Shown here: in pieces, positions 58,832 to 63,501 of the stretch
Numbering within the stretch: the stretch's first letter is position 1
Layout of the letters: the number at the start of each line of letters is the position of its first letter
NCBI GenBank assembly: GCA_019058315.1
Contig: JAHPZH010000002.1
Coordinates: 352,001-416,000 of the forward strand
Source: Candidatus Helarchaeota archaeon
Lineage (GTDB): Archaea > Asgardarchaeota > Lokiarchaeia > Helarchaeales > RDOG01
Direction of reading: 5' to 3'
DNA: 64,000 bases
Program-made: the position numbers and the translations under genes
The notes under the pieces: model-generated
What the model saw: the letters and a program-made list of their open reading frames with translations, nothing else
Told to the model about the DNA's origin: nothing
Databases searched by the model: none

Positions 58832-60286
58832 ATGAGTAAAGTAAAATGGGAAACCGAATTAAAAAGAGAACAAATTGAAAAGACTTGTATCAGAATAACC
58901 AGAAATTTGGTTGGGGAAGAAAAGAAAAGAGAATATGATGCATGTATCAATAAATTGAACTCAATCCTAGACAAAAACAGAATTAATGAAGAATTCGAAA
59001 ATCTAAAGCAAGAAGATTATGAAACTAGTTGTCTATCTATAATAGACCAATTGAATGTTAAAAATCCTAATAAATTGAAAAATAATTGTATAAATAAATT
59101 TAAAATTCAAATTAGTGACCCTATTTGGATAGAAAAAATGACTGAATATAAAAAAACTTTTCTATTTAATGAATTAAATGAATTAAATACTATGGTTGAT
59201 TTAGAAAAATATGAACATCAAAATAAGCTATTTATGAAGCAAATATTAGCTAGTGATGTAAAGAAAAACTTACAAATTTACTTTAAAGATATTAAATTGA
59301 AGGATGATCCTGATTTTTTAACGAGAAAAAAATCCATTTCATATAAACTAAATAAAGAATATTTATCAGAAAATATAGAGAAACAAGAAAAACTGAGACT
59401 TTTAGCAACTTATTTATTAACTGATGGGAGTCTATACAAGGATGGCAACAACTACAAATTAGATTTCACTAATAAATCTATTATTCTTATTGAAAAATTC
59501 ATGGATATACTAAAAGAATTTATACCTAATGCGCATTTCAATTTTACAAAACATAAGGTCCCAACAGGAATTAGTTATCAAGTCAAAGTTCCTTCTAATG
59601 AACTAGCTGAGTTATTATTTGAAATTTCACCATCCTACAAGACAAAACCCTATAAAAACCTTTCAGAATGTGAAAATGAATATAAAAAAGAACTTTGTGT
59701 AAAATGGAAGGTGAAAGACAAACAAATGGGATATAAAGAGAAATATTTCGCACCTGCAACTTACCGAAATATAATGGATAAAGTATCTGTTACAGATATT
59801 CTCAGAATAATTTTTGATAATGAAGGTAGTGTTGGTTTAAGCATTCGAAAAGATGGAAGAACAGATAAAAAATTGTCAGTTACTTGTCTACATCCTGGTT
59901 TAGCTGAAGAAATAAGACAAATGTTAATTGCAGTAGGAATTCACACAAATCCAATTCCTGAAAATTATAAAGGAGATTTTGAAATTTTATCTGAATATTA
60001 TGAAACTTTTCGTGATAAAATAGGATTTACTAGAGGAGTAACAAAAGAAAAGGGAAAATATTTAATTGGAAAAAATAAATCTGATATTTTAGATATTTTT
60101 ATTCTAATTTCTTGTATGCAAAAGGATAAGGGACTAATTTTAAAAAATATACCGAATTTAGAAAAAAAACTGGAGTCTATAGTAACCGAATATGAAGAAG
60201 GTGTAAACCAAGGTATTTCTAAAAACTTGTTATTAAAAAAGATTTCAGAAAAGTTAACTATTTTTCAAGATAATCGTAATAAATAG
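58832..60286 (+). CDS. Free-standing two-motif LAGLIDADG homing-endonuclease-like protein with N-terminal extension
   Basis: 'LATYLLTDGSL...LDFTNKS..LIEKF' and 'ILRIIFDNEGSV...LSVT....LAEEIRQML..VGI', 'FRDKIGF'; no intein splice motifs seen. Confidence 0.75.
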   Translation: MSKVKWETELKREQIEKTCIRITRNLVGEEKKREYDACINKLNSILDKNRINEEFENLKQEDYETSCLSIIDQLNVKNPNKLKNNCINKFKIQISDPIWIEKMTEYKKTFLFNELNELNTMVDLEKYEHQNKLFMKQILASDVKKNLQIYFKDIKLKDDPDFLTRKKSISYKLNKEYLSENIEKQEKLRLLATYLLTDGSLYKDGNNYKLDFTNKSIILIEKFMDILKEFIPNAHFNFTKHKVPTGISYQVKVPSNELAELLFEISPSYKTKPYKNLSECENEYKKELCVKWKVKDKQMGYKEKYFAPATYRNIMDKVSVTDILRIIFDNEGSVGLSIRKDGRTDKKLSVTCLHPGLAEEIRQMLIAVGIHTNPIPENYKGDFEILSEYYETFRDKIGFTRGVTKEKGKYLIGKNKSDILDIFILISCMQKDKGLILKNIPNLEKKLESIVTEYEEGVNQGISKNLLLKKISEKLTIFQDNRNK

Positions 60287-60294
60287 AAAAAGAG

Positions 60295-60477
60295 TGGGAC
60301 CGCCGGGCTTCGATCCCGGGACTTTACCCATGAGAGACGTTTATTCTCTCATTTCTGGCTTTCTCCGAGGAGAATTGTAAAGAGAGTGGTCAAGCTCTGA
60401 AATACAATTGTAAATCTTATAAGGCCAGCACTCTTTTTGGGAAGTTTTAGACTCTAACCAAGCTGAGTCACGGTCCC
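60295..60477 (-). tRNA. tRNA-Ile(UAU) with three introns (D-loop 60435..60455, 37/38 60361..60417, variable loop 60324..60353)
   Basis: Acceptor GGGACCG/CGGTCCC plus A73; D-stem ACTC/GAGT; anticodon stem CTGGC/GCCAG with loop CT-TAT-A^A; T-stem CCGGG/CCCGG. Removing 21+57+30 nt leaves a 75-nt cloverleaf. CCA is not encoded. Confidence 0.88.
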
Positions 60478-60534
60478 ATTAATTGTAGGTATCCATTGAT
60501 ATTATTGCAAATAATTAATGACTTTTATCTTTTT

Positions 60535-63501
60535 TTATTTTTCCGATTTTTTGAAATAGAATTGAATATCCACGTTTTCTATTGACAATTTACCCGAAAC
60601 GAAACCTTTTTTGACTTTATCTGGAGCTGATTTTACTATTTGAATTGTTTGAGCTCTTGTAATTGAAGTTATCATATCCTGAAACGTTGTTAATTTATCT
60701 AAAACGTCTTTATCATTACAAACCACTATTAATTCTATAGTTTCCTTCACATGGAATTTGTTTTTCTTCCGATTTTGCTGAATATGTCTTGTTAGCTCCC
60801 TGACCATATGTTCTGCTTTTAGTTCATCTTTTACTTCAGTTTCGAGTCCAACTGAGCACTTAGGTCGTTCTTTGAATTTTATTGTCTTCTTTTTCGGGGC
60901 TGATTTTACAACCTCTGTAGTTTTTACATTCGCTTGATTATTTATTATATCTAATAAGTTATCAATTTTATTCATTTTTTCCTTGGGAACAATTATTGCC
61001 TTAAGCAAAGGATAACGTAGTTTTATTCCTTCTTCTTGGCGAATGGATAAAAGAGATTCCACAATATGTTTAACCAGTTCCATTGATTCTTCCAATTCAG
61101 GTTTAATAAGTTTGGTATTTGTTTTTGGCCATTTAAGTAATTGGATGCTTTCTGGAGTTTTAGTTTCAGCAGGTCGAACTAAATGTTGGTAGAGTTCTTC
61201 AGATAAAAATGGTATGGCGGGTGTACTAAGTACGATAAGAGTACGGAGGACTTCATATAACGTTGCCATAGCTGCAGAATCTTGATTATTTATACGATCT
61301 CTGATTATTCTCACGTACCAATGACTAAGGTCGCTCATATAAAAATCCTGTAATAATTTCGGAATTTTTGGTAAATTATACGTTTCAAACTCTTCTGTCA
61401 CGTTTTTGATTAAAGAATTTAATCTTGAAAGAAGCCAAGTATCTTCAATTTGAAGTTTCATTTTACTAAGATTATGTTTTGTTGGATCAAAGTCTGCAAT
61501 TTTTAGAAACGTAGTAGCATAAACATAGACATTATATATAACATTTAGCATACGATGAGCATCTTTTAATTCAGTCCATACGAATTTCATATCTTCTCCG
61601 GGTGCTGTTGATTTAACGGAATAGAATCTGAAAGCTTCTGAGCCATACTTTTCTATTACTTCTTCTGGTGCTACGACATTTCCTATAGATTTACTCATAG
61701 GTCGTCCTTCTTCATCCATTGTAAATCCATGCATATATACTGCCTCGTAAGGACGAGTTTCTGACGATACAATACTCGAAGACATCAAAGTATTAAACCA
61801 ACCACGAATTTGGTCCTTTCCTTCTAATATGAAATCTGCTTTTTTCCAGTTATCAAAGTCATTTTTTCCATAAACAACCATATTTGTAGACCACATACCG
61901 GATCCTGAATCTAACCAAACATCCAATACATCTGGAATTCGTTTTTTAGTTCCACCGCATTTGCATTTCCAAGTAACTTCGTCTATCCAAGGTCTGTGGA
62001 GATCTTCAGGAACTTTATTAGAAAGCTTCTTCAGTTCATCTACTGACCCTATAATTGTAACATCGTCACATTTATCACATTCCCAAATTGGCAGCGGAGT
62101 TCCCCAATATCTTTGACGGGAAATACACCAGTCCCAAAGATTCGAAATCCAGTTGTGAAACCAACCACCTGCCCATTGAGGTTGCCAATAGACTTTTTTA
62201 TTTTCACTTATCATGAGTTCATGCAGTACACTCATTTTAAAGAACCACTGTTCAATATTTCGATAGATGAGTGGTGTTTTACACCTCCAGCAGTGAGCAT
62301 ACTCATGTTTTAATGTACCTAGATTTAACAATGTTCCTTTTTTCTTCAAATCATCCAATATTTTTTTGTTTGCATCTTTAACATAGAGTCCTTTGTATTT
62401 TCCTCCTTCTTCGGTAAAGTTCCCTGCAGAATCAAGAGGTGAAAAAGCTGGCACTTTGTATTTTAAACCAACTATGTAATCCTCTTGTCCATGCCCAGGA
62501 GCAGAATGAACTAATCCAGTGCCTCCTTTATCTACAGTAACATATTCTTCAGATAAAATAACTGTATGAACATTTGGATTTCCTTTTTCATATTCTAAAT
62601 TTTTAGGAACTTCTTCAGCTAATGGAGGAATGTATTTTAATCCTTCTAATTTTTCTCCTAAAAATTCTTCAATTATTTTAAAATCTTTGCCCAATAATCC
62701 TTGAATTACTGCTGTAGACAATGCTTTAGAAATTATCCAGACTTCATTACCAACTTTCGCTCGAATGTAGTTATATGTAGGATTCACCATAACTGCTAAA
62801 TTAGCAGGAAGTGTCCAAGGCGTTGTTGTAAATATTAGTAAATACTCATTTTTTTTATCTTTCACCTTAAATTTTAGAAATAAGGAGATATCTTCAATAT
62901 TATAATATTCAAATTCATGTTTAGCAAGCGCCGTTTCACATCTAGGGCATGTATTTAACGGTCGAGCACCTTTATACAAGTATCCATTATCCCATGCCTT
63001 TCGAATAGCCCACCATATTCCTTCTATATAGCTATTAAAGACTGTTTCGTAAGGATGTTCCCAATCATAAAAGCACGCCAGCCTTTTAAACTGTTCATTC
63101 ATTTTCCATAAATTTGTTTCTGCAAATTCACGACATTTTTTAATAAAATTTTCTAGACCAAATGCTTCTATTTCCTTTTTATTAGATATTTCTAATTCTT
63201 TTTCCATTAAAACTTCAATAGGTAATCCGTGCATATCATATCCTGGATTTACTTTTACATAATGACCTGTCATGCTTTTATAGCGGAGTACATAATCTTT
63301 CAAGACCTTATTCCAAGCAGTACCTAAGTGAATTGCTCCTGTTGTATAGGGAGGACCGTCAATAAATTTCCATTCAGGATCATTTTGTTCCAAATTCTTT
63401 TTCCAAATTTTTTCGAAGATTTTATTCTTTTCCCAGAATTTTAGAATTTTATCTTCCATCTCTTTAAATACAATTTTTTTTGGCAGTTCTTTTATTGGCA
63501 T
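60535..63501 (-). CDS. ileS: Isoleucyl-tRNA synthetase (archaeal/eukaryote type)
   Basis: 'DGPPYTTGAIHLG', 'DMHGLPIE', 'TTTPWTLPAN', 'GTGLVHSAPGHG', 'DWCISRQRYWG', 'EGKDQIRGWF', 'PMSKSIGN'. Confidence 0.97.
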   Translation of the reverse strand: MPIKELPKKIVFKEMEDKILKFWEKNKIFEKIWKKNLEQNDPEWKFIDGPPYTTGAIHLGTAWNKVLKDYVLRYKSMTGHYVKVNPGYDMHGLPIEVLMEKELEISNKKEIEAFGLENFIKKCREFAETNLWKMNEQFKRLACFYDWEHPYETVFNSYIEGIWWAIRKAWDNGYLYKGARPLNTCPRCETALAKHEFEYYNIEDISLFLKFKVKDKKNEYLLIFTTTPWTLPANLAVMVNPTYNYIRAKVGNEVWIISKALSTAVIQGLLGKDFKIIEEFLGEKLEGLKYIPPLAEEVPKNLEYEKGNPNVHTVILSEEYVTVDKGGTGLVHSAPGHGQEDYIVGLKYKVPAFSPLDSAGNFTEEGGKYKGLYVKDANKKILDDLKKKGTLLNLGTLKHEYAHCWRCKTPLIYRNIEQWFFKMSVLHELMISENKKVYWQPQWAGGWFHNWISNLWDWCISRQRYWGTPLPIWECDKCDDVTIIGSVDELKKLSNKVPEDLHRPWIDEVTWKCKCGGTKKRIPDVLDVWLDSGSGMWSTNMVVYGKNDFDNWKKADFILEGKDQIRGWFNTLMSSSIVSSETRPYEAVYMHGFTMDEEGRPMSKSIGNVVAPEEVIEKYGSEAFRFYSVKSTAPGEDMKFVWTELKDAHRMLNVIYNVYVYATTFLKIADFDPTKHNLSKMKLQIEDTWLLSRLNSLIKNVTEEFETYNLPKIPKLLQDFYMSDLSHWYVRIIRDRINNQDSAAMATLYEVLRTLIVLSTPAIPFLSEELYQHLVRPAETKTPESIQLLKWPKTNTKLIKPELEESMELVKHIVESLLSIRQEEGIKLRYPLLKAIIVPKEKMNKIDNLLDIINNQANVKTTEVVKSAPKKKTIKFKERPKCSVGLETEVKDELKAEHMVRELTRHIQQNRKKNKFHVKETIELIVVCNDKDVLDKLTTFQDMITSITRAQTIQIVKSAPDKVKKGFVSGKLSIENVDIQFYFKKSEK

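Follow-up and report, generated by a model that had tools for sequence, protein, structure and literature searches.

A tRNA-Ile(UAU) gene with three bulge-helix-bulge introns in a Helarchaeales genome and its probable role in AUA decoding without TiaS

Introduction

Decoding of AUA by an encoded tRNA-Ile(UAU) in organisms that lack TiaS is known from Nanoarchaeum and Korarchaeum (PMC8450103, PMC6000648), from ARMAN (PMC3239211) and from some bacteria (PMC3575796). The eukaryotic tRNA-Ile(UAU) carries a Psi-A-Psi anticodon (PMC8879553). Published Asgard tRNA genes are interrupted by several introns, in some cases by as many as five, and D-arm introns of ~21 nt in Asgard genes escape tRNAscan-SE (PMC11291895; bioRxiv 10.64898/2026.10.13.758758). 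An earlier note on the DNA studied here had placed triple-intron tRNAs mainly in the Thermoproteales, a view that is outdated by these Asgard genes. Neither of the two reports mentions tRNA-Ile(UAU), AUA decoding or TiaS, and the focal families of bioRxiv 10.64898/2026.10.13.758758 are not Helarchaeales. In our literature search no publication came up that connects Asgard archaea with loss of TiaS or with a UAU tRNA.

Here we describe a tRNA-Ile(UAU) gene in the genome of a Candidatus Helarchaeota archaeon (94% complete, 6.6% contamination). The window is the whole stretch of 64,000 nt that was analysed, and positions given without a contig name refer to it (Table 1).

Results

In its unspliced form the locus is invisible to standard tRNA finders. 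ARAGORN, run on the whole window, reported no tRNA there, and Rfam gave no match at the gathering score nor, on the locus itself, at E<=10. Automated annotation would for this reason show a genome without an AUA decoder. Removal of introns 1 to 3 leaves 75 nt, which ARAGORN calls tRNA-Ile(tat) with all stem pairs formed, and this bears out the perfect 75-nt cloverleaf that the earlier note had read from the DNA. The spliced 75-mer also reaches the maximum of our own cloverleaf score (27/27). It has the build of a class I tRNA: a 7-bp acceptor stem, a 4-bp D stem, an anticodon arm of 5 bp and a 7-nt loop (U33, purine 37), a 5-nt variable loop and a T arm of 5 bp and a 7-nt loop. The T-loop of the spliced sequence is ATCGAAG and begins with A54, as had been noted before; the missing U54 is unusual. 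Three tRNA-Ala genes of the same genome (C6:72218-72322, C10:16537-16670 and C3:631117-631191) have the same T-loop.

Table 1 Positions of the tRNA-Ile(UAU) gene, its parts, its neighbours and the compared 37/38 introns
Feature	Location	Strand	Remarks
pre-tRNA-Ile(UAU) gene	window 60295..60477	minus	5' end 60477, 3' end 60295; 183 nt; CCA not encoded
exon 1	60456..60477	minus	5' strands of acceptor stem and D-stem with nt 8-9 between them, D-loop up to nt 20a
intron 1	60435..60455	minus	21 nt, site 20a/21
exon 2	60418..60434	minus	nt 21-37, anticodon within
anticodon TAT (U34 A35 U36)	60419..60421	minus	
intron 2	60361..60417	minus	57 nt, canonical site 37/38
exon 3	60354..60360	minus	nt 38-44, 7 nt
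intron 3	60324..60353	minus	30 nt, site 44/45 (variable loop)
exon 4	60295..60323	minus	nt 45-73; T-arm (loop ATCGAAG), 3' strand of acceptor stem, discriminator base A73
T5 run	60287..60291	minus	4 nt beyond tRNA 3' end; probable archaeal transcription stop
ileS (isoleucine--tRNA ligase, 988 aa)	60535..63501	minus	TIGR00392, 894.8 bits, cut-off 621.4
tRNA-Ile(UAU) gene of Thermoprotei MAG (AUK163)	L104:6397-6497	minus	intron-containing
ileS of Thermoprotei MAG (AUK163)	L104:6588-8000	plus	
37/38 intron	L015:1506-1584		
37/38 intron	L238:292-360		
37/38 intron	L101:1198-1267		
37/38 intron	L012:1440-1511		
37/38 intron	L011:1437-1511		
37/38 intron (Thermoprotei MAG)	L104:6427-6470		

The UAU anticodon is encoded in the genome and sits on an Ile-type body. 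The tRNA-Ile(GAU) of the same genome (C5:118689-118814, minus strand), whose gene has two introns, agrees with the spliced tRNA-Ile(UAU) in 63 of 75 positions, with identity throughout the acceptor stem, nt 8-9, the D-loop, the T-stem and A73. This tRNA-Ile(GAU) has the T-loop ACCGAAG (A54, C55); neither ARAGORN nor Rfam nor our first own scanner detected it. Judged from its sequence, the locus is a genuine tRNA-Ile(UAU) gene with three introns of the bulge-helix-bulge (BHB) type in an Asgard genome.

The stop codon of ileS is located 57 nt upstream of the tRNA gene on the same strand. Candidatus Helarchaeota archaeon Meg19_1012_Bin_504 (G001), from the sister genus, has the same arrangement with a gap of 66 nt, and in the Thermoprotei MAG the two genes are 90 nt apart and divergent. 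The linkage was not seen in the genomes G003 and G006, in the archaeal MAG L101 or in four genomes of family f4, and a related-locus search with the ileS protein gave no match. Adjacency to ileS lends indirect support to charging of tRNA-Ile(UAU) by IleRS. It bears on the possibility that the UAU tRNA is not specific for isoleucine, being charged by another synthetase or reading AUG in addition to AUA, so that decoding would be ambiguous. A U34 that is unmodified or carries an xm5 modification is able to pair with G by wobble (PMC8879553), and the D and anticodon arms resemble those of the tRNA-Thr(UGU) of the same genome. Against such ambiguity stand the parts shared with tRNA-Ile(GAU), including A73 where tRNA-Thr here has U73, the neighbouring ileS in two lineages, and the Ile-specific decoding that other organisms achieve with UAU (PMC3575796); we hold it to be very improbable and retain an isoleucine tRNA as our reading.

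Downstream of the tRNA genes in G003 and G006 there are T runs like the one in Table 1. On the opposite strand an ORF of 484 aa with a LAGLIDADG_3 (homing-endonuclease-like) domain (58832-60286, plus) runs convergently and ends 9 nt from the 3' end of the tRNA.

All three introns show the BHB layout, with the cleavage sites between the second and third bases of the 3-nt bulges. In intron 1 the central helix H is TTGG/CCAA with 4 of 4 pairs, flanked by the bulges TT^A and AA^A and an h' helix of 3 bp; its junction can slide across an AGAGT repeat, which leaves the product unchanged. The motifs of introns 2 and 3 are relaxed, the 4-bp helix of each containing one A.G mismatch. The H helix of intron 2 is CTTA/GGAG (3/4), with the anticodon stem as outer helix (h, 5 bp) and an inner 7-bp helix AATTGTA/TACAATT, while that of intron 3 is GCCA/GGGT (3/4), closed by an 8-bp h' hairpin ATGAGAGA/TCTCTCAT. 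The A.G mismatch occupies the same helix position in both, as the earlier note had said.

We also enumerated splicing solutions in the manner of SPLITS, by listing all BHB-like pairs of the candidate, splicing up to four of them and scoring the resulting cloverleaf. The top solution, with maximum score, consists of exactly these three introns. Both this enumeration and the inspection of the motifs thus uphold the helices, bulges and sites (20a/21, 37/38 and 44/45) first proposed for them, and the SPLITS-type search suggested as a check returned the proposed introns as its best solution. Under strict cloverleaf rules only two solutions remain, one D-loop base apart and both with UAU, which is the sole anticodon among the viable splice products. 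Our relaxed BHB test is passed by ~1.3% of the position pairs in the precursor, and with junction sliding allowed for, the probability of a pass in every one of the three required junction classes is ~2e-4. A junction of the 35/36 type, which would yield the anticodon UAA, does not give a viable product. Near the anticodon there is just one other BHB-like pair, and splicing there leaves a 5-nt loop; the class I body is also unlike that of a tRNA-Leu.

An initiator-type tRNA(CAU) gene of the same genome (C5:113829-114010, plus strand) is resolved with three introns as well (D-loop 41 nt, 37/38 31 nt, T-arm 35 nt), and three-intron genes are thus not peculiar to tRNA-Ile in this genome.

The H helix of intron 3 occupies nt 39-42 and thereby excludes the anticodon stem. 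Since the BHB of intron 2 requires this stem and that of intron 3 takes its nt 39-42, the two motifs are mutually exclusive, in agreement with the competition that the earlier note had postulated. Ordered or alternating splicing of introns 2 and 3 would be a fair structural inference from this exclusion. Under constrained folding, all three BHB conformers came close to the minimum free energy of the precursor (-60.9 kcal/mol), with values of -60.9, -58.3 and -56.8 kcal/mol for introns 1, 3 and 2, respectively. The genome has two EndA homologues, at C12:5422-5676 and C1:331438-331698, which match PF01974 and lie in open reading frames 184 and 204 aa long.

BLAST with the 183-nt precursor matched nothing in 40 relatives, and an exon pattern was needed for finding orthologues. 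Six were found in this way: in G001 of the same family, in G002, G003 and G006 at the order level, in the archaeal MAG L101 and in the Thermoprotei MAG AUK163 (L104). When the degenerate exon pattern was run over genome contigs, the matches listed were mostly chance. Across the seven mature sequences, our own included, 147 of 147 stem cells are paired, with changes on both sides (compensatory) in 10 of the 21 pairs, and neither the loop CTTATAA nor A73 varies. In G003, G006 and L101 the UAU genes have T-loops TCCGAAG/TCCGAAC, with C55 instead of the near-universal U55.

The 37/38 intron is present in all seven genes; the other introns vary. The gene of G001 is interrupted in the D-loop, at 37/38 and in the T-loop, those of G002 and L101 in the D-loop (16/17 region) and at 37/38, and those of G003 and G006 at 37/38 and 45/46, and the Thermoprotei gene has the 37/38 intron only. 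Orthologues without copies or with shifted copies support introns 1 and 2 as discrete units.

For intron 3, and for this intron only, the support comes from a natural allele. A 296-nt contig (depth 10.9) from run X3, an independent sediment metagenome, spans positions 60294-60619 and lacks exactly 30 nt after 60323, i.e. 60324-60353, the predicted intron 3. Among the five of its six differences that are listed, no further one lies inside the gene, either in the exons or in introns 1 and 2: four are upstream of the tRNA (60489, 60502, 60517 and 60520) and one is in the end of ileS (60568). The assembled contig demonstrates that an intron-less form is present and gives no frequency for it. This allele means that intron 3 is dispensable, and the presence/absence polymorphism is a direct and recent case of tRNA-intron turnover at a BHB-competent site. 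One of the X3 differences lies within a TATA-like box, AATAATAT, at -22 to -29 of the tRNA, which makes the promoter assignment doubtful and co-transcription with ileS possible.

These comparisons weigh on whether the locus could be a decaying or silent tRNA pseudogene with introns that can no longer be removed, AUA being read by another, undetected tRNA. The relaxed form of two of the three BHB motifs, the blindness of standard tRNA finders to the locus and the incompleteness of our own tRNA inventory would suit such a state. It is difficult to reconcile, however, with 21 of 21 stem pairs that are intact and covary over seven genes, with a strain that differs in the flank yet, among the differences listed, inside the gene only by the precise loss of intron 3, with the failure to find another UAU gene, TiaS or TilS in this genome, and with the very common use of AUA. 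We consider a pseudogene extremely improbable and treat the gene as functional in the following.

AUA amounts to 34.5 per 1000 codons in 2,194 long ORFs; it accounts for 34% of the Ile codons and is the 9th commonest codon. As AUA is among the commonest codons of this AT-rich genome, its reading is central to translation and to correct annotation. The search of the genome for tiaS that the earlier note had proposed gave no match to the TiaS FLD domain (PF08489), and the TilS-specific domains PF09179 and PF11734 gave no match in this genome either. In the relatives the FLD was likewise without a match (41 genomes); none of 71 genomes of the class gave one, among them 39 with a completeness of 90% or more, and the same search detected it in 120 of 201 genomes of the phylum, corresponding to 120 of ~130 outside the class. 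By family, it is missing in f2, f4 (0/51), f5, f6, f13, f15, f16 and f21 and present in nearly all others. Because TiaS is missing across the class and found outside it with the same search, this is a clade-wide pattern and not an assembly gap. A scan with a TiaS alignment gave matches chiefly in Bathyarchaeia.

No second UAU gene appeared in the tRNA scan of the genome. Two genes with a CAU anticodon were found, the one on C5 described above and another that belongs to a tRNA cluster on C3. With A1:U72 and a GGG/CCC anticodon stem, which are the marks of initiator tRNAs, both are initiator-like. The scan found no elongator tRNA-Met, and judged from this incomplete inventory alone a tRNA-Ile(CAU) gene may be present; screening of GC islands for hidden tRNA genes turned up so many islands that it was not informative. 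The C3 cluster (C3:627500-631800, minus strand) holds ~24 tRNA genes in 4.3 kb with AT-rich stems, among them three tRNA-Cys, an odd tRNA-Ile(GAU) and the initiator-like tRNA(CAU), and many of its specificities duplicate dispersed genes. It could be an array of a mobile element or virus, or contamination.

Both TiaS and tRNA-Ile(CAU) might exist and have been missed due to assembly gaps or a divergent enzyme, in which case the UAU tRNA would be a minor redundant isoacceptor. The genome is after all incomplete at 94%, the search covered the FLD domain of TiaS only, and the elongator CAU genes that were not found indicate that the scan misses some genes. We regard this as very improbable in view of the distribution of the FLD: it was found in no genome of the class (71 searched, 39 of which are 90% complete or better) and in 120 of ~130 other genomes of the phylum. 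Very probably, tRNA-Ile(UAU) replaces the agmatidine route for AUA in this lineage.

The UAU gene was not found in f4, the main family of the class. It is not among the Rfam tRNA matches of G032 and G010, the exon pattern matched only in coding sequence in five genomes, and the vicinity of ileS in four contained no UAU gene; this reflects a shortfall of the search and not absence of the gene.

The core of intron 2 is conserved in the order-level orthologues. The 37/38 intron keeps CACTCTCTTTACA in our genome, CACTCCGTACA in G003 and G006 and CCTCCGGTACA in the Thermoprotei MAG. Pairing of part of the core with exon nt 21-26 is possible, and G001 shows a compensatory change there. When RNAalifold was applied to the anticodon arm and intron 2 from six genes, the anticodon stem came out, and no convincing intron fold common to them. 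Visual inspection around the conserved TACA in intron 2 for C/D boxes or an H/ACA architecture revealed neither a proper C box nor a pocket, and with no guide-RNA layout we do not claim that the intron is a guide RNA. The Psi-A-Psi anticodon modification of eukaryotic tRNA-Ile(UAU) is intron-dependent. By way of speculation, the 37/38 intron might be obligatory for archaeal tRNA-Ile(UAU) because a U34/U36 modification that blocks reading of AUG, e.g. pseudouridylation, would be made on the precursor, with the intron core (CACTC..TACA in Helarchaeales, CTCCGGTACA in the Thermoprotei MAG) as recognition element. We think this unlikely; if true, intron-dependent Psi-A-Psi formation would be older than eukaryotes.

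Discussion

We propose that the gene gives rise to a precursor with introns in the D-loop (20a/21), at 37/38 and in the variable loop (44/45), each able to fold as a bulge-helix-bulge. The archaeal splicing endonuclease would cut the introns and an RNA ligase would join the exons to the 75-nt class I tRNA, which would then receive CCA and be charged by IleRS. AUA would be read by this tRNA-Ile(UAU) and not by an agmatidine-modified tRNA-Ile(CAU), because the lineage has neither TiaS nor TilS, and some modification of U34 would keep the tRNA from reading AUG. Very probably the gene encodes a functional tRNA-Ile(UAU) of this kind, which is spliced from a precursor with three BHB introns, is charged by IleRS and reads AUA in a lineage without TiaS and TilS; we infer transcription, splicing and its order, aminoacylation and the modification of U34.

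The distribution of TiaS in Asgard archaea, not found in our sample of Lokiarchaeia/Helarchaeales and kept in the tested families of Heimdallarchaeia, makes these organisms a natural system for the swap of decoding strategies. In current phylogenies, eukaryotes are nearest to Heimdallarchaeia. TiaS was found in 15 of 15 genomes of the family of Candidatus Heimdallarchaeota archaeon bin6 (f22; CP070695) and in 18 of 21 of the family of Candidatus Heimdallarchaeum aukensis PM71 (f8; CP084166), i.e. two Heimdallarchaeia families keep it in 33 of 36 genomes together. Scored on TiaS presence in these two families, the state of the closest Asgard lineages does not fit shared descent with eukaryotes. 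Since these two families keep TiaS and eukaryotes are nearest to Heimdallarchaeia, the state in Lokiarchaeia and Helarchaeales is explained more simply as a parallel replacement than as an ancestral link to eukaryotes, and the pattern speaks against the UAU route as a eukaryote-ancestral trait. The earlier note had suggested a eukaryote-like AUA route in an Asgard lineage. The UAU tRNA and a 37/38 intron in every copy stand; common descent is not supported, given TiaS in these Heimdallarchaeia and the same route in Nanoarchaeum, Korarchaeum and ARMAN. As a description, "eukaryote-like" goes no further than an analogy of function.

With the eukaryotic cytosolic tRNA-Ile(UAU), the gene described here shares an anticodon UAU read as isoleucine and a 37/38 intron in every copy seen (PMC8879553). 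Eukaryotes also use IAU, and their tRNA genes, unlike the present one, are without introns in the D-loop or the variable loop. In Mycoplasma mobile a UAU tRNA compensates for a lost C34-modifying enzyme (PMC3575796), similar to what we propose here, but this tRNA-Ile(UAU) is bacterial and has no introns.

Closer are the archaeal systems. In Nanoarchaeum equitans and Candidatus Korarchaeum cryptofilum, as here, an encoded UAU in tRNA-Ile3(UAU) stands in for tRNA-Ile2(CAU) (PMC8450103; PMC6000648), and the Korarchaeum gene likewise has an intron and is closest to the tRNA-Ile(GAU) of its own genome (PMC6000648). These organisms belong to other phyla, at most one intron is reported for them in comparison to three here, and adjacency to ileS does not figure in PMC8450103 or PMC6000648. 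The pre-tRNA-Ile(UAU) of ARMAN-2, -4 and -5 resembles ours in the anticodon UAU, the intron at 37/38 and the lack of TiaS, and ARMAN is in addition without tRNA-Ile(CAU) (PMC3239211). Its single intron of 25 nt conforms strictly to the hBHBh' motif, and in vitro the epsilon2 endonuclease was shown to cleave it (PMC3239211). In comparison to ARMAN, the present gene has two extra non-canonical introns, relaxed motifs and two separate EndA homologues in its genome. The published multi-intron Asgard genes are similar in having several BHB introns, D-arm introns of ~21 nt and intron presence that varies between close relatives.

In conclusion, UAU decoding without TiaS and heavily interrupted Asgard tRNA genes are both already known, and the gene described here is a well-supported new example of them. 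It is firmer than usual due to a natural intron-less allele, an isoacceptor twin in the same genome and the linkage to ileS.
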